Shown piece by piece: positions 42,639 through 52,350 of a stretch of DNA of 64,000 nucleotides. The stretch is from positions 181,186 to 245,185 of the forward strand of contig JACPCR010000064.1 in NCBI GenBank assembly GCA_016179685.1, given 5' to 3'. Each line of letters opens with the position of its first letter. Positions within the stretch are counted from its first letter, which is position 1. The notes beneath the pieces were generated by a model that saw only the letters and a program-made list of their open reading frames with translations, was not told the origin of the DNA and searched no databases. A program made the translations under genes and the position numbers. This stretch comes from Planctomycetota bacterium (GTDB taxonomy: Bacteria > Planctomycetota > PUPC01 > JACPCR01).

Positions 42639-44681
42639 TTACTCCAGAATAAGCGATTTCGTCAGAAGCTTCTCGATGTAGGTGGCCTTGTCTTCCTTCT
42701 GGAAAAGCACATGGTGCTTCTCGAAGGAGGCCTTGTTCGTCCCGCCCTCCCACCAAGTGACTTCCTCCCGGCGGGTACTTGAAAGGATGAAGGAATTCAG
42801 GATGACGGCTGGATCGCCTATCCGGCCCTCCAACTCTTTGATCGTGGCGTGGAAACGAATCTTCGGGTCGTTCTTGCCCTCAAGATTCCGGATGCCTTTG
42901 GGATCAATGAAGGTGATGTGCTGGCGGCTGCCCGATAGAAGCCAGAGGATGAAATCCGGGTAGAAGTTCCCCGCCTCGAAGAACCCGATACCCCGGCCCC
43001 GGCTCTGGTTGCGTAACAGGTAGAGTTCCTTCTCCTTGAAGAAGCCCTTGTTGCTGTCGAAGAAGGAGCGCAGGTCGAGGACGAATTCCCTTTCGCCTTC
43101 GTTCAGGGAAACCGGTCGGACCTCGATGTTGTCGCCCTTGAGGTAGAGGAGAGGGCGGTAGAGGTGCTGGCCGAAGCAGATGCCGCGAAACCGGTCGTGC
43201 TCGATGTCCCGCCATTCGCCCCGCTCCACGGCCTGCTTCAGTTCCTTGAGCTTGGCGATGATTTCCTTCTCGGATTCGTCAATCAGAATGCGGTATTCTT
43301 CGATGAAGTTGGGGTCGTCCGGGCGCAGTTCCCGATACTCTAGGTGTGGATTCTCATACTCCGCCTTCCGGTAATAGTAGTAACGCTCGCAGTATTTCTT
43401 CAGCAGGGCGATCGCCACCTCTTCCCATGCCCGAACCCTGCCGAAGCGGGTCAGGCTTAGCTCCGTTTCGGGAATGTAGAGCGTATACCAGTCCGACCGA
43501 GCCAGCAGACTTCGCACCTGCTCCCTGGACAGGCTGAGGTTATGCCAGGCCTTCTCGCTCTTGAAGTGCTCAAGCTCGAAGAACACGCGGTCGAAATCCA
43601 TGAAAGCCAACTGGACGTCCCGCAGCTTCCCTTCGTGCTGTTCGGCAGCGCCCTGACTCGTTCCCGCGCCGCGGCTGATGTGCGCTTGGACTCTCGGATA
43701 CCAGTCCAGGACGACCGGATACCTGACCAGATGTTCCGGCGGCACGTCGAGCGCCGGCTTGGGTCCGTCCCGCTTGAAATCAATGCCGTCTTTCAGCTTG
43801 AGAGTCTTGAGCTTCGTCTGGCCGAGGTTCTTCAGGACGGGCAGGACAAACTCCATCCGATCTTCGTTGGACGGCAGCCCCTCCTCTTCGAGGTATTCCT
43901 TGAACTGCCGCATGTAATCGGCCCGGATGCCGAAGATGTGAATGTCGATGATTTCCACGGATTTCCCGGCGAACAGCCCACGCCCGTCCTTCGAGAACAT
44001 TTCCGCCTGAAGCCCGGACAGCCCGAATTCCTCCAGGTGTTGCCTCGATAGCCCTTCGTTGGGAGTCAGGAGAATGATGCGATTGAGGTTGCGTTCCTTG
44101 CCGTGCTGGGCCAGGTAGTGTCGATACTGAAGCAGGTTGACGTGCATGAGCAGCGTCTTGCCCGACCCAGTGGCGCTCCAGAAGGCCAGCTTATTGAGCT
44201 GCTCCGGCTCGTAGGGCTGAATCTTGTCCCCCTCTGTTTTGTCCTCGTTGAAGCGCCTGACGAACGCGTTCAGGTCATTGAGCAGGGTATCCGGATTCTG
44301 GAAGTAACGGTCGAGGTAAATCTCCGTGAACAGCAGCGAGAGGTATTGGAAATACTTCGGGTAGAGGTTGTTGGCCTGGTGGCGCTTCTCGGTGATGACT
44401 CGCCAGTGGCGGACAATGTTTTGGTCGTATTGGAGAAGCAGGTCCGAGGGAAGCTGCTTGCGCTGGAATAGGCGGGCTTTGAGGACGTGGTGATAATGGC
44501 TGACGCCTTCGCCGTCGAACCCCTCCAGGTTTGGGCTTTTCAGCTCCTCGGCGAGCTGGCCAATGCGTTCGACCTCGAACAGGTCGAGCCTCCACTGGGC
44601 GAGGACGAGGCGCTCGTCGAATTTGAGGCGGGTCTCGCGGCGGGTTGGGCCGGCTCTCCTTCGGGCGGTTCCTGAAGGCAT
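42639..44681 (-). CDS. restriction-endonuclease-like P-loop NTPase (Res-like: helicase-type ATPase with C-terminal PD-(D/E)xK-like motif)
   Basis: 680-aa ORF; Walker A FWSATGSGKT; degenerate motif II-like IIDIH (no DExH); C-terminal YPDFILW...TFIDPKG fits PD...(D/E)xK nuclease pattern; last gene of the mod-containing minus-strand array. Confidence 0.55.
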   Translation of the reverse strand: MPSGTARRRAGPTRRETRLKFDERLVLAQWRLDLFEVERIGQLAEELKSPNLEGFDGEGVSHYHHVLKARLFQRKQLPSDLLLQYDQNIVRHWRVITEKRHQANNLYPKYFQYLSLLFTEIYLDRYFQNPDTLLNDLNAFVRRFNEDKTEGDKIQPYEPEQLNKLAFWSATGSGKTLLMHVNLLQYRHYLAQHGKERNLNRIILLTPNEGLSRQHLEEFGLSGLQAEMFSKDGRGLFAGKSVEIIDIHIFGIRADYMRQFKEYLEEEGLPSNEDRMEFVLPVLKNLGQTKLKTLKLKDGIDFKRDGPKPALDVPPEHLVRYPVVLDWYPRVQAHISRGAGTSQGAAEQHEGKLRDVQLAFMDFDRVFFELEHFKSEKAWHNLSLSREQVRSLLARSDWYTLYIPETELSLTRFGRVRAWEEVAIALLKKYCERYYYYRKAEYENPHLEYRELRPDDPNFIEEYRILIDESEKEIIAKLKELKQAVERGEWRDIEHDRFRGICFGQHLYRPLLYLKGDNIEVRPVSLNEGEREFVLDLRSFFDSNKGFFKEKELYLLRNQSRGRGIGFFEAGNFYPDFILWLLSGSRQHITFIDPKGIRNLEGKNDPKIRFHATIKELEGRIGDPAVILNSFILSSTRREEVTWWEGGTNKASFEKHHVLFQKEDKATYIEKLLTKSLILE

Positions 44682-44687
44682 CGGTGG

Positions 44688-45013
44688 CTAAGGTGATGGA
44701 AGAGGAATTTCAACATACTGGCCGGGTTTCACGGTCTTCAGTGTTTGCTCGATGACGGACAGAAGGCCGGCCACCATCGGAACCTGGTTGCTGGGAAGAA
44801 CCACCACTGCGAGCTTTATTGCGGCAAGGTTCTGCTGATAGCGTAAGTTCTTGTCCGTGGTCATGAAGACGTCAAACTCGTTCTCCGCTCGCCTGAGCAA
44901 TTCGCCGTTCTTCAGCCCGCTCCACAAACCATTTCCTGAACGGTTCGGATTGCCAGATCGGGAAGTCGCGTCTTCACCAGCCGCGGCACGCACTCATCAA
45001 GTAAGATTCTCAA
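44688..45013 (-). pseudogene. DUF5615-like (PIN-like) toxin-type gene, apparently frameshifted
   Basis: N-terminal ILLDECVPRLVKTRL (DUF5615-like) is read in one frame from TTG ~45013, the remainder (...WSGLKNGELLRRAENEFDVFMTTD...) in ORF 44688..44993; frames differ by 1 nt near 44930. Confidence 0.4.
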
Positions 45014-45255
45014 TTCGACCTACCCAGGCGCAGAAGGGTGGCTTTGGAGAATTCAAGGACTTGTAACGCCTGCTCTCGAGTCACGGAAGGGAAGTTCTCC
45101 AGAAATTCTTCCAGGGTCAGGCCCGCCTCGAGGTTGTCAATGAGGGCTTGCACCGGGACCCGCGTCCCCCGGAAAACGGGCGCTCCGCTGACGATTTCGG
45201 GATCGATGGTTATCGGCAACTGCTCAAGCTCTGCCTCTTCAATGACCAGTGACAT
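45010..45255 (-). CDS. DUF433 family protein (antitoxin-like partner of DUF5615)
   Basis: ORF 45010..45297; start at ATG 45255 with GAAGGAGG upstream; GAPVFRGTRVPVQALIDNLEAG matches DUF433 pattern from memory. Confidence 0.6.
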   Translation of the reverse strand: MSLVIEEAELEQLPITIDPEIVSGAPVFRGTRVPVQALIDNLEAGLTLEEFLENFPSVTREQALQVLEFSKATLLRLGRSN

Positions 45256-45318
45256 CGTGGGCCTCCTTCGTGAGGGTCGGGAATCGACGAGAGCCATTTT
45301 ACTCCAGATTGCCTTCCC

Positions 45319-48300
45319 CTACACGTCCTTCACGTCGAACATCAGCCGCTGGAATTCCTCCTCAATTAGCCGGACTTTCCAGGTCATGTCCTCACGGCGC
45401 AGGTTTTCCAGGTGGTTGTCGCCGTTCACGTAAATCAGGTCGAACTCCTGGTCCCGGGTGTTGTACTTCTGCTTCCGGAAAAACTCGTCCAGGTCCTCGT
45501 TCGACTTCCCTGCCTTCCCGTCGGGAGCAGACAGGTCCTTCAAGCTCCGCCAGATGACCAAAACCTTCTCGCCCTGGGGATTCGTGCCTTGGACGACCCG
45601 GAAGCCCCGGATAACGTCCACGTGCATTACCCGGAGGCCCAGCAGGTAGTTGAAGGTCTCGACCAGGTCCACGGTTGTGGGCCGAGTCTCGCCCGCGCTG
45701 CCGGTGGCGATGTTGAGCTTGTAGAAGAAGGGGTCTTCGAACGCGGCGATGTTCAGCAGCGACGCGCTGCCGCGGCTCTCCACGTCCAGCATATAGGAGA
45801 GGAGGTAGTCCTCCCGGACTCCGTCGTTGGCTTCCAGGAGGGCGGCCTGCAAGTCGGTGCGTTTCAGTTCCAGGTTGTTGAGGGTGTCTTCGTAGGATTT
45901 CAGCCGGAGGTATTTGAAGAGGTGGCTGGAGCCTTCGCGGCTAACCGGCTTGCCGTCTTTCCAGTCCTTGGAGTAGATGACCTTCTGGATGCGTGGCTTG
46001 AGGACGGTATTGAAGTATTCGGCCATCTCGACGAGGATATACTTGCGGCCCCCCCCGGGTCTCGCGCGTCATCGCGATTCAGGTTGATGACGGCATGGCC
46101 CGTGGTGCCGGAACCGGCGAAGAAGTCCAAGACCAAGGAGTCCTCCGCGTCCGAGCAAATAAGCACGCAATCCTTGACAGCGTGTAGGGATTTGGGGAAG
46201 TCGAATGGACTCAGCGGACCAAACATTTCCTTCAATTCTTTCGTTCCATTGTCCCGAGCAGAATAGGCCGGGCTATCCCACCACGTGCGAGGCAGCGACC
46301 CTTCTTCGCGTAAGTACTTCCGTTTGTAAACCTCGTACTTGCCATCTCGCTTCATCACCTTCATTAGACAGACCTCTGCGATCGCCCTTTGAACGCCGAA
46401 GTTCCAGACCTTTTCAACGCCTGAATCGTCAATGGGCCAAATAGCGACTTCGCCGGGACGGGTTTTCTCGTTGATCCTCCAACTTTTACTGGTTTCTAGC
46501 CATTCCATCCCGGGGATCCGCTGTGCGTGATGCGCCTCGTCGAAGTAGATCGGAAAGAATTGCTTCGGTCGGTCTGGTCTGTCCGATCCCCTGCTGCTCT
46601 TCCTGAAGTTCTCCCATTCGAACGGTTTTCCCTCCTCATCTACTTGGTCGTACCTTTGTCGCTGAGAGTCACTGTGAGGCAACCGACCAACTTCGGAAGA
46701 CTGTGCAAGTTTCGAGTAGAACAGCGCGTACTCGTGGTTAATGGCGAACCCCTTCGTCGTAGCGCGACCGGACGGGTTGTTGCGAATCACAACGGTCGCC
46801 ATGTAGTTCTCATCAAAGAAAACACGATCTAACACAGACCTCAGGCGGTGGGATTCGTAGTCATCTATCGTCACGCACAGCAGCCCGTCGCAAGACAGGA
46901 CTTCACGTGAGAGTGCAACTCTATCTTCGACGAGGGAAATCCAAGTCGAGTGCTTGTACTCGTTCTTATACAGAATCTCGCTCTCTATCGCGTTATAAGG
47001 TGGATCGATGTAGATACACTTAATCTGTTCCCTATAGCGTGTTTCTATTAGGTTGAGCGCCTGGAAGTTCTCCCCGTGCACCAGCAGCCCGTCGGTATTC
47101 TCGTCCAGGTCCTGGATGCTGGCCAGCAGGCGGTCTTTGAACTCCGGGTCGAAGAAACGGGTGTCCAACACCAGGAAGGGATTAGCCTTCAGGAACTCCA
47201 CAGTGAGCGGCTTGGAATATTTCGGGGTGTGCAGGTCGCCCTGGATTTCGTCAATGGCGAAGAGGCGGACCCATTCCTCCCGCTGGGCGTCGCTGGCCGC
47301 GATTTCTACGTATAGCTCCCCAGGGACGCGGTCGAGCGTGATGCAGTAGTTCGTCTCGACCACGAACTTCTTCTTGAGCCAGAGCTTCTTCTGGAAGTTC
47401 TCCAGTTGCTCCAGGAAGGCGATGATCTTGTGGGCGATGCGGCGGAGCGCACGGATTTTGCCGAGATACTGCTCCACGCGGGGCGCGGACTCGCTTTCGA
47501 TGTCGTCCAGGTGCATGACCTCGTTCTTGATGTAGAAGTCCAGCTCCCGGCGGAGGAAGCCGCCCAGGTCCTTGTGGATGAAGTAGTCGAAGGTGTTGCG
47601 GGCGGTGTAGTCCGTGAGGTGCTTTTCGAGAAGGGTGCGGTCGGGATTCTTTTCGGTGGGGGCGGGGGTGGAGAGTTCCTCAATCCATTCTTTCGCATTG
47701 GCGGCTTGTAGTGCCCTCTTTAGAGGGTTGCCTTCGTCTGCACTACCCGCATCGAAGAGACCCGCTGTCCCAGCGGGATCCCTATGGGAAAGCGGCACTA
47801 CGAACCCGGAAGCGATGGCGGCGTTGTGATCCGACTGTTTCCGTTTCTGCGGGTCCGGCTGGTAGAGGAAGTGGATGAATAGCTCGTCAGGCTTTATGTC
47901 CACGGGATTCGATTCGCAGAGCATGAACCGGCGCTCCTTGTCGGGCCCGGCTTTCTGGTTGTCCTTCTCGGTGTCGGCTTCGACGAGCTTGAAGTGGACG
48001 CGGCGGCCGGAGGGGAGCTTGAAGGTGTAGTCCCGGAAGTATTCGGACGACTTGACGTAATACTGGTCGTGATTGGCCCAGTGGAGCTTGACCTCCTCGC
48101 CTTCGTAGGGGATGGCATAGACGCCTTCCTTGTAGCGGCGGAGGGAAAGGAAGTCGCCCTCGTGGTAGTAGCGGCGGAAGAAGTTGGTGAGGTCGGAGAA
48201 GATTTCCTGTTCGAGGGCGGCGGGGTCGCCGGCGGACTGGTATTTGGCCTTGAGTTCCTTGACCTTCGGGCTGGTTTCCGGGTCGATGCCAAGTCCTTTG

Positions 48301-48527
48301 GCCTGTTCGATGGCTTCCTTGAGTTGGGACTCGATGACGCGCTGGTCGCCGGACTGGTGTTCGCTTAGGGCATTGCGGACTTGCGGGAGGAGGTCTTTGT
48401 CGAGGAAGCGGGTAATCTCGTCCCGCTTCTGGTTCATGATGCGGTAGATGCCGAAATCGAGGTCGGCCTGGTCGAGCTGGAAGAGCTCGGCGAGCAACCG
48501 CCTCAACTTCTCGAGGTTTTGAGACAT
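45319..48527 (-). CDS. beta-class (N6_N4_Mtase-type) DNA methyltransferase, type III Mod-like, with ~500-aa N-terminal extension; reading frame interrupted at a C8/G8 tract
   Basis: ORF 45900..48527 contains motif IV IYIDPPYN and, ~300 aa later, motif I LDFFAGSGTTGHA (order IV then I = beta class); C-terminus continues in ORF 45319..46026 if the G8 run at 46049-46056 is read as G9 (...NLNRDDARDPGGGRKYILVEMAEYF...). Confidence 0.7.
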
Positions 48528-48546
48528 TGCGACAAACCCTCTGCGT

Positions 48547-49650
48547 CTATTCGTTGTGCTCGAGGAGCACGAATTTCCGTTTCAGGCCGTTCAAACAGTC
48601 GTGGCGGAGATGCCCCTCGTGCTGAAGCCGCCCGACGACGATACCGGGAGCGATACCGAGTTGACGGGCGAAGGCCGAAATGTCCTTCTCGCTTCGGTAC
48701 TTGCCCGTGGTTACCAGCTCGTCGTACTTGGCTTGCGGGATCAGCATCTTCACCGCGAAACGGTCCGCCTCCGTTTCCTCCATGCTCTTCGGCTTCTCCT
48801 TGTCGTCGACGAAGGCGGCCCTCTTGCCGTGCAAGAGTATGTGGCCTGCCTCGTGGAAGAAGCTGAACCAGAAATGGTCGTCGCTCTTATGCCGAAGGCT
48901 GAGCATCAGGAGGGCCTTGTCCTTGCTCAGCCAGCGTGTCGCGCCGCTGAGGTGCGTGCCCGGCAACTCCGCTACGAAGACGACGGCTACGCCGGCGTCG
49001 CAACAGAGGGCCTTCATCTTCGGCTCGAAGATGGCAGGCTCCGCGTTGGTGACCGACTGAATCTCCCGTAGCGCCGCGAGGAACCGTTCTTTGTCGTAGC
49101 GCGAGCAGACAACTTCCCGCGCCCACAGCTCCCCGATCCGTAGCCACGCCGTCAGGGACTCGGGAGCGCTCTTGAATGCAGGGGAATGCCTATAGGCTAC
49201 GTTGAGACCGGCGTAGGCTTCTTGCCAGGCCTCCACGCTTCCCACACCGAAGAAAGCAAGAAGGGAGGCAACGAGCTCGGCTGGGTCATCGGTTTTGGGA
49301 ATCAACCGGCGTTCAGCAAGCTCCTTGATGGGGAACTTCCTTGCCCACGCTTCCTGGCCCTCAAGCGCGGACCGGTCGGCAGCCTTGGCCGCGTGGAGCC
49401 GGAACAGACCATCCAGGTTGTTCCAGACCGCAGCGGACACGCCAAGGACCCTCTCCAGTTGGATGGCAGTCTCCGACGTGACGTTAGCCTTTCCAGTGAT
49501 GATTTGGCTAACCGTCTTCTCGCTCAGACCGCACCGTTGGGCCAGGTCCGTCCCCTTCATGCCCTTCGCTTCCAGGGTCTCCTTCAAGATCTCTCCCGGG
49601 TGAACGGCGTAGTCGGGATGGAATTCGTTCCTATCCGTGCTAAGTGTCAT
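48547..49650 (-). CDS. HigA-like HTH (XRE family) antitoxin domain fused to ImmA/IrrE-family metallopeptidase domain
   Basis: 367-aa ORF; N-terminal HPGEILKE...LSEKTVSQIITGKANVT HTH; C-terminal FFHEAGHILLH HExxH zinc-peptidase motif (COG2856-like). Confidence 0.7.
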   Translation of the reverse strand: MTLSTDRNEFHPDYAVHPGEILKETLEAKGMKGTDLAQRCGLSEKTVSQIITGKANVTSETAIQLERVLGVSAAVWNNLDGLFRLHAAKAADRSALEGQEAWARKFPIKELAERRLIPKTDDPAELVASLLAFFGVGSVEAWQEAYAGLNVAYRHSPAFKSAPESLTAWLRIGELWAREVVCSRYDKERFLAALREIQSVTNAEPAIFEPKMKALCCDAGVAVVFVAELPGTHLSGATRWLSKDKALLMLSLRHKSDDHFWFSFFHEAGHILLHGKRAAFVDDKEKPKSMEETEADRFAVKMLIPQAKYDELVTTGKYRSEKDISAFARQLGIAPGIVVGRLQHEGHLRHDCLNGLKRKFVLLEHNE

Positions 49651-49985
49651 CGGTGGTAGTCCTCCAGGCTCAGGATGCGGATAGTGGTGATCCGGGTAAG
49701 GTCGATGCCCCCGTCAGGTTTGAGCGGCAGGTCGGCCTCAGCGGGCCCAAAAACGAGACGGAAGGGATGTTTGAGGTCAACGGCGAACTGCCCCTTCCTG
49801 TTCCCCGTCAACTCGTGTCGGCGCGTGGGCGGCACGTGGGGGACCTCGGCGAGTGTCGGGGCAGCTCGAAGGAAGGCCATGCGCTTCATGATAACCTTCC
49901 CGTTCTCTGCGCCGTACTCGCGGCATAGTGCCTTCTCGGAATTGAAGGTCTTAGCCATCTTGTCGTTCCCGAACAGGATGTTCAT
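49647..49985 (-). CDS. HigB-like (RelE/ParE superfamily) toxin
   Basis: 112-aa ORF overlapping downstream gene by 4 nt; resembles plasmid-maintenance-system-killer/HigB toxins (KALCREYG...LTGNRKGQFAVDL...FRLVF). Confidence 0.6.
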   Translation of the reverse strand: MNILFGNDKMAKTFNSEKALCREYGAENGKVIMKRMAFLRAAPTLAEVPHVPPTRRHELTGNRKGQFAVDLKHPFRLVFGPAEADLPLKPDGGIDLTRITTIRILSLEDYHR

Positions 49986-50050
49986 CCCCGCCTCATTATA
50001 ATCAGTTTACCTAAAAGGTAAAGCTTTTTCTCGCGTTCGCACCAGGAGTC

Positions 50051-51543
50051 TCAGGTGACCGACCATCGGATGGTGAAGAGATGCTCCACAGTTGTTCGCT
50101 GGGTCATTCGCTTTTCGAGCGCGGCGATGAGCGTGTCCCGCTTCGCCAGAATCTCATCTTCGAGGTCGAAAATCTTCTGCCGCTGTTTCCGCTGCTTCTG
50201 CTCCAGGTCCCGGATTTGGACCTACAACTGATGCTGCTCTTCAGTGGTGGCAGACATCCGGGCCTGCCGGTTCAGCGCCCGGATCTGCGCTTTGGTGTCC
50301 GCCAACTCCTTTTCCGCGGCCAGAACTTTATCCTCCGCCCATTTCTCCAGCCGTTCCCGCTCCTCCTGGAGGAAGCGGTTGTTCATCTCAAGGGAGCGGC
50401 TGATGGTGGCTTTGACGTGCCGCTGGGCTTCCTTGCCGAGCCGGTCTTTTATTTCCTGCGGCTGGCTTTCCAAAGGGGAAGCCTTGCCATTGCAAAGGAA
50501 AAGCTTCTCGCAGGTTTCCTGGTTCACGGGCCGGGCGGAATCGTCCAGCGCGGAGAAGAGGAGGTATTCCTCCCGGTCGAAGGATTCGATGACGAGCCGC
50601 TGAAGCACGAGCCAGCCGGAGTTGCCTTTGAGGGCCTCCACTACGGAAAGCCGGGTGGGATGGCTGGTGATATCGAAGGCGACTTCCGCGAGCGGGGTCG
50701 GGCAGGAGCGGCCTTCGCTGAGCGCGTGCTGGCCGAGCGGATGGGAGAGGCGATAGAGGAACTCGCCGGAAACGTTCTGCTGGGACTTGGAGATGAGGTG
50801 GTATCGGCCGGGCCGGACGCCATCGCAAGGGGCGGCGTGAAGGTCGAAGTGAAGCGCCTGGTCGTCAAAGCTGGCCGCGTTCCGCAGGATAAACTTGGTC
50901 AGCGCCCAGAAGAGCTTGCCGAAGCGGTCGAGCTGCTCGCGGGCGCTGTCGAGCTGCACTCTCAGGCGGGCGTGGACCTCTTCATCGAAGTGTTCGAGGA
51001 GGATGCGGCGGGTCTCGTCGATCCGGGACTTGATGGAGGATTCGAGTTCGGCGCGGAGCTGCTGGAACGCGGCTTCGATCTCGCCGGGCGTCCGGCACTG
51101 CTGATAGATGGCGAGGATGCGCTTTTCAAAGTCCACGCCGGATTCGATGGTGCCGAGGACTTCGTCCGACGCGCCGAAGACGCCCGTGAAGAGGTTGAAC
51201 TTATCCTGGAGTTCGAGCGACCACTGCTTGCGGATGGATGCCGGGCAGATGACAAGGAGTCGGCGGCGCTGCTCTGTCCAATGCTGTGGCACAGGACAAG
51301 CCCCGCCTCGATGGTCTTGCCCAAGCCGACCTCATCCGCCAGGATGACGCCTTTGGAGATGGGTGAGCGGAGGGCAAAGAGCGCGGCGTCAATCTGGTGG
51401 GGGTTGAGGTCCACGCAGGCGTCGAACAAGGACCGGGAGATGCGGTCCACTCCGGTTGTCGGCCCCTGGCGGGTCAGTTCGTAGGCATAGTAGCGGGCGT
51501 GGTAGGGAGTGCTCACGACCGGGCCAATCTCCGGGGCTATCAA
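50051..51543 (-). pseudogene. SNF2-family helicase remnant (frameshift, in-frame TAG, helicase core apparently missing)
   Basis: N-terminus in ORF 50962..51543 has SNF2 motif I (ILADEVGLGKTIEAG); continuation LVICPASIRKQW is in a different frame (ORF 50222..51292); reading continues in frame through TAG at 50222-50224 for 56 more codons; no DExH or motif VI seen. Confidence 0.5.
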
Positions 51544-51684
51544 GACAAGTGGGCCTGTTTCTGAAGCCGTGAAGGCGGCCTCCAGGACAGCATTCTATCC
51601 ATTTGTCTTTGCGCGTTCCGACCGAGACAATCCAATCGGACACAGGACGCATTTCGAACACGCCGTGTAAAAAATCCGGGCCAG

Positions 51685-52350
51685 GTGGTCCCCATTTGGA
51701 ATCGCTGGGTGCTTCAAGTGGAGATTCATCCGGCGGCTGGCCGCACCTGTCCCGCCGCGCTTCGCTCCACTCTGCGTTCCGCCCCGAATGTCATCGCGCT
51801 CGGAGCGATACGGGACCCGGAATCTCTGGCCCTTTGCCTGGAAGCTTCTCTCATGGGCCATCTGGTCCTGGCGGTTCTGCAAGTCGAAGACGCAGCGGCG
51901 GCGCTCCAGCGCATGGTTGAAATGTCGGGCGACCCACTCGTGGTGGCTGATGCAACGAAGCTGGTGGTCTCGCAGAGATTGGTGCGGAAGCTATGCACCC
52001 GATATTCCCGGGAAGAGCCGCCCGGGGATGAGCTTCTCGAGTGGGCCAGGAGCGCGGCGGAGAGCGGAGGCCTGGATTGGGCAACAGCCTCGAAACGCTT
52101 CCGCTCTGCCACGGGGTGTCCTGAGTGCATGAATACGGGATACCGTGGCCGGAACGTCATCGCCGAGGCGCTGGAGGTCACGCCCGGTATCCGGGCCGCG
52201 CTCCGTGAGAGAGCGGCGACCGGTCGTCTTCGGGCCGTGGCCATCGAACAGGGTATGATCTCCTTCAGCGCCCATGGGATTCTGAAAGCGTCGCCAGGCT
52301 TCACCACCTTGGGCGAGATCGCCCGTCACTCGGGCAGCTCATTCGTTTGA
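51685..52350 (+). pseudogene. C-terminal fragment of GspE/PilB-type secretion ATPase
   Basis: 221-aa ORF lacks Walker A/B but retains C-terminal features (PNVIALGAIRD, GHLVLAVLQVED degenerate His box, GCPECMNTGYRGR zinc-knuckle region). Confidence 0.45.

Follow-up and report, generated by a model that had tools for sequence, protein, structure and literature searches.

Does a toxin-antitoxin-like gene pair that lies immediately upstream of a DNA methyltransferase gene control the neighboring restriction-modification genes, or does it act on its own account? The question is raised by a locus within a 64-kb stretch of DNA (the window, meaning the whole stretch that was analyzed), for which a preliminary description had proposed an inducible controller. 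The explanation that we favor, with a probability of roughly 70%, is an autonomous, self-regulated toxin-antitoxin-type cassette that is lodged in a now-disrupted restriction-modification operon. Both open reading frames of the pair lie at the positions first described, and their minus-strand location is confirmed. The relevant features of the pair are as follows:

49647-49985, minus strand: HigB-type toxin gene, 112 aa, predicted from sequence and model to encode a RelE-superfamily protein of the ribosome-dependent mRNA endonuclease type
48547-49650, minus strand: fused HTH-peptidase gene, 367 aa
49429..49587, minus strand: HTH coding region (Pfam HTH_3, residues 22-74, E=1.4e-11)
48841..48855, minus strand: codons of HEAGH (residues 266-270), the predicted zinc-binding and catalytic motif, read directly from the sequence
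48775-48777, minus strand: codon of E292, the predicted third ligand

The toxin gene comes first, and the two genes share 4 nt (ATGA). The stop codon of the fused gene occupies 48547-48549 and is followed by a spacer that contains GAGGG and by the methyltransferase ATG at 48527. The fused gene had been described as ending 20 nt before the methyltransferase start; its close approach to that start is confirmed, and the distance is corrected to 19 nt.

The fused protein comprises a HigA-type XRE HTH (residues ~15-104), a helical linker and a zinc peptidase of the M78 (ImmA/IrrE/CapP) type (residues ~170-345). This architecture, as first proposed, is borne out by the Pfam and NCBIfam profile searches, in which residues 244-341 match Peptidase_M78 (E=1.2e-9, 38.4 bits vs a cutoff of 22) and HigA TIGR02607 exceeds its cutoff with E=1.6e-16. 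The solved HigA structures 3cec, 2icp, 6jpi and 4mcx are matched by the fused-protein profile with E values from 7e-14 to 4e-9; when the full-length profile is compared by sequence with the PDB, the HTH part alone is matched. Fold comparison assigns the peptidase domain to the M78 fold, with CapP as the best structural match. In an alignment of 25 diverse homologues, H266, E267, H270 and E292 are invariant, and the HExxH motif, whose absence the preliminary description had named as grounds for abandoning its proposal, is intact as HEAGH...E. The invariance of this site in a family of thousands of members indicates that the peptidase activity is under selection. The exact 367-aa protein is present in NCBI, where it derives from a Planctomycetes MAG and is annotated as a 'HigA family addiction module antidote protein'.

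Judged from its sequence, the HigB-like protein belongs to a divergent subfamily of HigB toxins. Its match to the Pfam family HigB-like_toxin PF05015 is below threshold (E=0.037, 14.9 bits vs a cutoff of 27), and PF05015 is carried by some of its close homologues. A profile of its own family reaches GraT with E=2.8e-6 and, more weakly, Proteus vulgaris HigB with E=0.006, and PHROG 3066, 'toxin of TA system', matches the protein with E=1.5e-7. Among 40 homologues, H57 and H111 are invariant, and conservation is no lower than 90% at D109 and Y110; the segment 'vedyH' aligns with 'YEDYH' of HigB, and H57 aligns with the His of 'klHpLkG'. The PDB titles of the P. vulgaris HigB matches mention the variants Y91A and deltaH92. 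The AlphaFold model of the protein (pLDDT 92.4) shows the RelE/HigB microbial RNase fold in Foldseek comparisons, in which the top matches are all P. vulgaris HigB and the best is the ribosome-bound form (target-normalised TM 0.81, probability 1.00). The initial reading of this gene as a HigB-like toxin is upheld by the family profile, the active-site residues and the predicted fold.

A comparison with the HigBA systems (Proteus vulgaris HigBA, Pseudomonas putida GraTA and E. coli HigA) reveals the same order of toxin first and antitoxin second in overlapping genes, the HigB fold with its H...DYH residues, the N-terminal HTH of the HigA type and a palindromic predicted operator over the promoter. 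The pair differs in that the antitoxin comprises 367 aa and carries an M78 zinc peptidase, whereas the HigBA antitoxins contain ~100 aa; additionally, the toxin is ~20 residues longer and has a conserved DGGIDL insertion.

The order of a HigB-like gene followed by a HigA-HTH-peptidase fusion is also that of PD-lambda-2, which provides abortive-infection defence in E. coli (Vassallo 2022, PMC9519451). In that system, overexpressed B (the HTH-peptidase) is toxic, the HigB-like A rescues the cells, and PD-lambda-2C, which is related to a P4 antitoxin, is required for defence (PMC9519451). These roles are the reverse of the classical toxin and antitoxin roles assumed here for the pair. If they applied at this locus, the HTH-peptidase would inhibit growth by proteolysis or mis-repression, the HigB-like protein would inhibit it in turn, and phage would break that inhibition. 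The nearly full-length match of the fused protein to the PADLOC model PD-Lambda-2_B (PDLC03982; E=7.9e-38, residues 15-346 corresponding to profile positions 57-377 of 402) and the invariant peptidase active site are consistent with such an arrangement. However, the near invariance of H57 and the C-terminal D-Y-H in 40 homologues would not be expected of a mere inhibitor, and the PD-Lambda-2_A model matches neither the HigB-like protein of the window nor any of 40 family members (0/40) at E values up to 1. A third gene resembling PD-lambda-2C is absent here, where the next gene encodes the methyltransferase, and does not recur in 80 relatives. We regard reversed roles as quite improbable. With the A model unmatched and the C gene absent, full membership in PD-lambda-2 is rejected, and for the same reasons the transfer of its defence phenotype to the present pair is an extrapolation. 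The mechanism of the fused peptidase is tied to the toxicity of PD-lambda-2B.

A search for operator palindromes near higB, which the preliminary description had called for, yields one ahead of this gene, in addition to a promoter-like site:

50006..50022, no strand assigned: perfect palindrome TTTACC-N5-GGTAAA, predicted from sequence to be the operator of the HigA-type HTH, overlapping the -35 element
49995..50022, minus strand: predicted sigma-70-type promoter with -35 TTTACC at 50022-50017, a 16-nt spacer and -10 TATAAT at 50000-49995

The -10 element ends 9 nt ahead of the higB ATG. The predicted promoter matches 10 of 12 positions and is the sole promoter-like site between 45000 and 52000 on either strand, as scored against a consensus that may not suit this organism. 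The palindrome is matched once in the window, where 0.11 matches are expected when up to one mismatch is permitted. Of 76 loci drawn from many phyla, 70 carry a relaxed motif, TWACC-N5-GGTWA, in the 100 nt that precede higB, and the median position of the motif centre is -31 relative to the higB start; the background in flanking DNA is 16 strand-wise matches (~8 sites) in 673 kb. Each locus has one predicted operator, located upstream of higB, and in the 64-kb window none of the methyltransferase, Res and helicase genes has a further palindrome ahead of it. The conserved predicted operator, ~31 nt upstream of higB, offers a handle for DNA-binding and reporter work on an abundant family.

Separation of the pair from the methyltransferase gene by a terminator and an independent promoter, the other ground for abandonment that the preliminary description had named, is not seen: the interval contains neither a terminator-like site on the coding strand nor a promoter of its own. 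Terminator-like matches occur at chance level (8 found vs 7.2 expected), and the one at 48554-48572 lies on the opposite strand. Because of these absences, the 19-nt spacer and the location of the sole predicted promoter upstream of higB, co-transcription with the methyltransferase gene by read-through from the pair is plausible. Together with the common orientation of the genes, the same features favor the possibility that the adjacent restriction-modification (DISARM-like) genes answer to the HTH-M78 fusion as an inducible controller of the CapH-CapP type. In that case, the HTH would repress a promoter that serves higB, the fused gene and the methyltransferase and Res genes, and a peptidase activated by stress or phage would lift the repression and thereby raise restriction-modification expression.

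The systems on which this possibility is modeled resemble the fused protein in part. CapH/CapP, ImmR/ImmA and DdrO/IrrE likewise combine an XRE HTH repressor with an M78 HExxH...E peptidase, and the HExxH-to-E layout of CapP (H97/E98/H101/E128) is matched by the fused protein, as is the fold of CapP by its peptidase domain. CapH and CapP regulate immune operons, and a vapC-like gene with a CapH-CapP fusion has been reported beside a DISARM system (Lau et al., bioRxiv 10.1101/2022.04.27.489752), which also speaks for a controller. In contrast to these systems, both parts are fused here in one chain and paired with a toxin. CapH/CapP modules lie upstream of their target operon on the opposite strand (10.1101/2022.04.27.489752), whereas the present pair is internal and co-oriented. 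The GAF domain, which senses single-stranded DNA in CapP and IrrE and forms a C-terminal groove in CapP, is absent from the fused protein. There is also no cysteine switch, a feature that is not universal in CapP: the loop 271-291 contains no Cys, and the invariant C216 precedes the motif. With neither element present, CapP-like sensing of single-stranded DNA is unsupported, and both absences argue against a controller of this type. The controller (C) proteins of restriction-modification systems, which are small stand-alone HTH proteins encoded upstream of the restriction gene and acting at C-box operators, are not what is found here either.

The distribution of the pair bears more directly on its role. 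More than 7,600 homologous proteins share the fused HTH-peptidase architecture, and the observation is therefore not due to chance. In 78 of 79 evaluable genome loci, which span many phyla, the fused gene is immediately preceded by the gene of a HigB homologue. The other neighbors are almost all different and often housekeeping genes (80 loci), and clustering of the neighbors at these loci reveals no conserved third gene, only small restriction-modification clusters. Such genes are enriched in the flanks and adjoin the pair at ~9 of the 80 loci (~11%). The family is also found on 69 plasmids, with Microscilla pSD15 among the matches, and on at least 124 viral contigs, and is accordingly mobile. 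The pair is thus a widespread, self-contained two-gene toxin-antitoxin-type cassette, typical of an already described family.

That family was delineated by Makarova, Wolf and Koonin (2009, PMC2701414), who reported that Xre-COG2856 fusions share operons with RelE or PIN toxins and put forward, as a computational prediction only, a protease-controlled three-part toxin-antitoxin circuit. The architecture, the gene association and even the plasmid example, Microscilla pSD15, are the same as those observed here. Beyond PMC2701414, the present analysis adds the operator palindrome and the finding that the pair can be embedded in SNF2-methyltransferase-Res operons. A literature search found no experimental study of a HigB toxin with an M78 peptidase antitoxin. 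The main value of the present analysis is one of clarification, in that it reads a widely occurring 'HigA family antitoxin' that carries an ImmA/IrrE peptidase as a portable self-regulated two-gene unit and not as a part of the restriction-modification system around it.

The scattering among unrelated, often housekeeping, neighbors and the occurrence on plasmids would also suit a purely selfish addiction module with no role in defence or regulation, the loss of which kills the cell and in which an exceptionally large antitoxin simply happens to include the peptidase domain. The survival of an intact pair in a decayed island (see below) points in the same direction. We consider a purely selfish module highly improbable, in view of the selection on the invariant HExxH...E site, the enrichment of restriction-modification genes in the flanks and the protection against phage that is conferred by the relative PD-lambda-2.

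The operon in which the cassette is lodged has the order SNF2 helicase-methyltransferase-Res, and its genes are disrupted in the window as follows:

50054..51543, minus strand: SNF2 (DrmD-like) helicase remnant, with NCBIfam and PADLOC DrmD matches to fragments
45319..48527, minus strand: Type III-like gene for an N6/N4 DNA methyltransferase, which a frameshift divides into open reading frames of 875 aa and 235 aa
44688..45297, minus strand: second small inserted cassette between the methyltransferase and Res genes, consisting of a DUF433 gene (45010-45297) and a 101-aa open reading frame (44688-44993)
42639..44681, minus strand: Type III-like Res gene lacking ~residues 248-611 (helicase motor) through an in-frame deletion

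The methyltransferase matches Pfam N6_N4_Mtase and PADLOC MTase_III (E=5e-180 for the first open reading frame and 2e-53 for the second). Its alignment changes frame between 46068 and 46044, and the frameshift lies within the G8 run at 46049-46056; at the related loci L005 and L085, the enzyme is encoded by an intact single open reading frame of 1015 aa. Compared with the 957/958-aa orthologues at L005 and L085, the helicase remnant has a frameshift near 51286, the loss of residues ~113-572 and an in-frame stop at 50222. With the 1058-aa Res of L085 as a reference, the alignment covers residues 5-247 and 612-1055 without a change of frame, and residues 247-674 match positions 673-1125 of the 1154-position PADLOC REase_III profile. 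The DUF433 assignment is from Pfam (E=8e-21), and the 101-aa open reading frame beside it has no family match. This second cassette is missing from the intact relative L085, where the gap between the methyltransferase and Res genes is 6 nt. All three large genes are therefore broken in the window, the pair is intact, and the host genes are intact in L085. An assembly error is unlikely to account for the broken genes, since four Logan assemblies, made independently, all contain the 875-aa, 356-aa and 680-aa open reading frames, and two of these assemblies agree on the G8 run. The host operon is not a DISARM system, in which a core of DrmA, DrmB and DrmC accompanies DrmD and DrmMI: the intact L085 helicase scores 674 bits vs a DrmD_b cutoff of 950, and no DrmA, DrmB or DrmC is seen in the flanks.

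This context also allows the controller hypothesis to be weighed. The five genes of L085 are tightly packed, with gaps of 37, 1, 9 and 6 nt, and the window, L005, L085 and L086 share the arrangement with proteins that are ~60-65% identical, as would suit an operon under common control. However, ~90% of the 80 pair loci have no restriction-modification neighbor, the pair is missing from all 80 additional loci examined for the host methyltransferase family, each locus has but a single predicted operator, and at the present locus an intact pair sits among broken restriction-modification genes. We consider a controller unlikely. Of the original proposal of an inducible controller of the downstream genes, read-through in the absence of a terminator stands as plausible, whereas a dedicated restriction-controller role is not supported, given the varied neighbors, the single predicted operator, the methyltransferase loci that lack the pair and the decayed host genes.

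In the autonomous cassette, which remains our preferred reading, HigB would act as a ribosome-dependent mRNA endonuclease, and the HigBA structures suggest that the HigA-type N-terminal domain of the 367-aa protein would keep it inactive. The conservation of the predicted operator suggests that the same domain would bind TTTACC-N5-GGTAAA over its own promoter and repress it. The fused M78 peptidase may serve as a built-in trigger, set off for example when a phage infects the cell or DNA is damaged. If it works like the analogous ImmA/ImmR, IrrE/DdrO and CapP/CapH, the triggered peptidase would cut the HigA part or the linker, in the same molecule or in the dimer partner; the cleavage would free HigB, stop translation (abortive infection or growth arrest) and de-repress the promoter. 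In this lineage, the cassette probably was inserted between the SNF2 helicase and the methyltransferase of a three-gene Type III-like operon, at a position that, like the methyltransferase-Res junction, appears often to hold passenger defence or toxin genes, and would have outlived the operon, in which all three large genes have since been disrupted. Should the cassette influence methyltransferase expression at all, it would do so incidentally, by read-through from its promoter. The locus illustrates how an addiction-type cassette may survive its host defence operon.

Among the 5 loci of the closest clade (at least 60% identity), 4 have the pair in an identical position within SNF2-methyltransferase-Res operons, an arrangement that is compatible with some functional integration. 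In the clade that contains the window, L005, L085 and L086, the cassette may have been recruited as a dual-output switch, in which one trigger would make the peptidase both release HigB, arresting translation, and lift the repression of the shared promoter, so that methyltransferase and Res expression rises; we hold this to be doubtful. If true, it would couple abortive infection to restriction through a single protein, and the cross-phylum operator TWACC-N5-GGTWA would make it directly testable.

Across the methyltransferase family, the helicase gene abuts the methyltransferase gene directly in 47 of 54 loci. Other passengers occupy the remaining 7 helicase-methyltransferase junctions and 22 of the 69 methyltransferase-Res junctions, and include Fic/DOC, AAA_15/21, AIPR, GmrSD, PLD, RhuM and AbiGi; Fic and AbiE-like ATPases are among the passengers often carried. 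SNF2-methyltransferase-Res operons thus appear to take in a range of passengers, toxin genes as well as abortive-infection genes, of which the pair is one option. A toxic gene embedded in a restriction-modification operon is known from PrrC in the EcoprrI Type I locus. The present locus is similar in that a small toxic module sits among restriction-modification genes, in a host family that accommodates alternative passengers. It differs in that there is no sign that the restriction-modification proteins mask or sense HigB, and in that most copies of the pair lie outside restriction-modification loci. At one locus, L053, relatives of the pair sit between hsdM and hsdS.

The HigB-like gene and the fused HTH-M78 peptidase gene overlap by 4 nt and lie within a disrupted operon, the features of which are as follows.

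42639-44681, minus strand: Type III-like Res gene, still open (680 aa)
44688-45297, minus strand: DUF433 gene and a 101-aa ORF, a second small cassette between the methyltransferase and Res genes
46049-46056: G8 run on the coding strand (C8 on the plus strand), exactly at the methyltransferase frameshift
48547-49650, minus strand: fused HTH-M78 ORF (367 aa)
48841-48855, minus strand: HEAGH codons, residues 266-270 of the 367-aa protein
49647-49985, minus strand: HigB-like ORF (112 aa)
50022-50017 (-35, TTTACC) and 50000-49995 (-10, TATAAT), minus strand: sigma-70-like promoter just upstream of higB
50006-50022: perfect palindrome TTTACC-N5-GGTAAA, overlapping the -35 element
50054-51543, minus strand: SNF2 (DrmD-like) helicase remnant with three lesions
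51685-52350, plus strand: T2SSE (type II/IV secretion ATPase) ORF

Domain searches of the 367-aa protein reveal Pfam HTH_3 (residues 22-74, E=1.4e-11) and Peptidase_M78 (residues 244-341, E=1.2e-9) domains; the protein also passes the NCBIfam HigA model TIGR02607, and its HTH is nearer to HigA than to restriction-modification C proteins. The HExxH motif is present as HEAGH, and aligning 25 homologues from many phyla shows no variation at H266, E267, H270, or E292, which have the same layout as the CapP ligands H97, E98, H101, and E128. The 112-aa protein falls below the Pfam HigB threshold (E=0.037). A profile of 40 sequences from its family matches both GraT (E=2.8e-6) and HigB of Proteus vulgaris (E=0.006). 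The HigB motifs have counterparts in H57 and the C-terminal Asp-Tyr-His of the aligned protein, and the structural model (pLDDT 92.4) best matches ribosome-bound P. vulgaris HigB (TM 0.81). These results confirm the preliminary description of a HigB-like toxin and a HigA HTH fused to an ImmA/IrrE-type peptidase. The fused gene also directly precedes the methyltransferase gene, a large ORF, as had been described, with a spacer to its ATG (48527) of 19 nt rather than 20 nt.

The fused architecture (approximately 365 aa) is shared by more than 7,600 database proteins, most of which are named "HigA family addiction module antitoxin", and NCBI includes an identical protein from a Planctomycetes MAG. 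Relatives are found on 69 plasmids, including the Microscilla plasmid pSD15 cited by Makarova et al. 2009 (PMC2701414), and on at least 124 IMG/VR viral contigs. That study noted operons that combine Xre-COG2856 fusions with RelE or PIN toxins, and it proposed a protease-controlled three-part toxin-antitoxin system. Additionally, the PADLOC model PD-Lambda-2_B matches the fused protein over nearly its full length (E=7.9e-38). PD-lambda-2 is an experimentally discovered abortive-infection system of three genes: A (HigB-like), B (HTH-peptidase), and C (PMC9519451). However, the HigB-like family of the pair does not match the PD-Lambda-2_A model and the C gene is absent; the pair is therefore related to PD-lambda-2 without being a full member. 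In PD-lambda-2, B is toxic alone and is rescued by A (PMC9519451), and by analogy a similar reversal of roles between the HTH-peptidase and the HigB-like protein is a live alternative for the pair. Nothing at this locus is categorically new, and the useful additions are a conserved operator and the picture of a passenger within an operon.

The surroundings of the pair were surveyed in 80 loci from species-representative genomes. The HigB-like gene lies directly upstream of the fused gene in 78 loci, and one of the remaining two is cut by a contig end. The neighbors on both sides are nearly all different, and no third gene recurs beside the pair in these loci. Recurrence among the 137 nearest ORFs (150 aa or longer) is limited to HsdM, HsdS, N6_N4 methyltransferase, and SNF2 helicase, which occur in approximately 9 of the 80 loci; every other family is represented once, for example PdxA, glycyl-tRNA synthetase, ribosomal protein S7, and RNase E/G.

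The promoter upstream of higB is the only sigma-70-like promoter in 45000-52000, and the search for an operator palindrome upstream of 49985 found the one overlapping its -35 element. Across the 64-kb window this pattern has a single match, versus 0.11 expected (at most one mismatch). In 70 of 76 loci, the 100 nt preceding higB contain a relaxed form, T[TA]AC[CGT]-N5-[ACG]GT[TA]A, centered at a median of -31, compared with 16 strand-wise matches (approximately 8 sites) in 673 kb of flanking DNA. The comparative evidence for autoregulation of the promoter by the HigA-type domain, through one predicted operator per locus, is strong.

Comparison with relatives reveals a three-gene host system comprising an SNF2 (DrmD-like) helicase, a Type III-like methyltransferase, and a Type III-like Res. 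In L085, a relative whose fused protein is 63% identical, the five genes are intact in the order helicase (958 aa), HigB (112), fused protein (365), methyltransferase (1015), and Res (1058), with gaps of 37, 1, 9, and 6 nt; two further relatives (L005 and L086) are arranged similarly, and in a fourth (L088, 60% identity) the pair lies between trpD and a DNA glycosylase gene. All three host genes are disrupted in the window. The helicase gene carries a frameshift near 51286, an in-frame stop at 50222, and an in-frame loss of approximately 460 codons (residues ~113-572) with its junction at two EKF(N/S)L-coding microhomologies; the methyltransferase frameshift falls between 46068 and 46044; and Res has lost approximately 364 codons in frame (residues ~248-611 of the L085 orthologue), including most of the helicase motor. 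Both small cassettes are intact, and the window's ORFs recur in four independent assemblies. The DUF433 cassette, whose 101-aa ORF has no family match, occupies a junction that is only 6 nt in L085. A DISARM identity of the operon was rejected, as the intact helicase scores 674 bits against a cutoff of 950 and DrmA, DrmB, and DrmC were not seen in the flanks.

In 80 metagenomic loci of the methyltransferase family (44-66% identity), the pair is never present. The helicase gene abuts the methyltransferase gene in 47 of 54 loci, and other inserts occupy this junction in the remaining 7 and the methyltransferase-Res junction in 22 of 69. These inserts, co-oriented with the operon, are defence or toxin genes of the kinds usually carried as passengers: Fic/DOC (6), AAA_15/AAA_21 (4), AIPR (2), PDDEXK_3 (2), GmrSD (2), PLD (2), RhuM, Schlafen, DUF1016, and AbiGi. 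Elsewhere the pair sits inside Type I systems, as in hsdM-pair-hsdS of L053. Taken together, these gene neighborhoods argue that the pair is an optional passenger, like many others, and that the operon does not require it as a regulator.

The preliminary description had suggested that the HTH-peptidase could be an inducible controller of the downstream restriction-modification genes, which is partly supported. Co-transcription with the methyltransferase gene is plausible from the sequence, because no terminator-like site is found on the coding strand between the two, predicted terminators being at chance level. A dedicated role is argued against by the self-contained cassette with its own single operator, the disrupted host operon, and an operon family without the pair. 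CapH/CapP regulators, including a vapC-like gene with a CapH-CapP fusion beside a DISARM system, provide a precedent (10.1101/2022.04.27.489752); however, such modules have been described upstream of their operon in divergent orientation, whereas the pair is internal. Furthermore, CapP is coupled to single-stranded DNA by a GAF domain and a cysteine switch, both of which the fused protein lacks.

With the HigB fold and residues that it displays, the toxin is most likely an mRNA endonuclease. In the most likely mechanism, HigB would be neutralised by the HigA-type domain, as in the matched HigBA structures, and the complex would repress its own promoter via the conserved palindrome. By analogy with ImmA, IrrE, and CapP, the M78 domain, whose active site is invariant, may act as an integral trigger: upon a signal it would cleave the antitoxin part, freeing HigB and de-repressing the promoter. 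In intact operons, de-repression would also raise methyltransferase and Res transcription as a by-product.

Several further observations were made. In the fused protein, the loop between HEAGH and E292 (residues 271-291) is modeled with low confidence, and H274, K276, F280, and D282 within it are near-invariant; C216 is invariant and N-terminal to HEAGH. By analogy, these residues might form a regulatory loop distinct from the CapP cysteine switch. Relatives with TTAACC-type operators (L012-L017, L029, L051, L053, L056, L059, L065, L067, L068, L070, L081, L082, and L084) carry a conserved TTGACA approximately 12-14 nt before the start codon of higB, too close for an ordinary -35 element serving that start. 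In the Desulfomonilaceae locus L053:4033-8333, the fused gene overlaps hsdS by 4 nt, and HsdM or HsdS also flanks the pair in L044, L065, L067, L075, and L082. The T2SSE ORF matches only profile positions 187-370 of 370, and its 5' truncation exactly at the defence island edge suggests that it was cut by island insertion or by deletion. The G8 run is the only homopolymer of at least 8 nt in the window and is identical in two independent assemblies; G9 would restore the methyltransferase reading frame. The run may provide slipped-strand ON/OFF switching of a Type III-like mod gene, or it may be no more than a frameshift that has become fixed.
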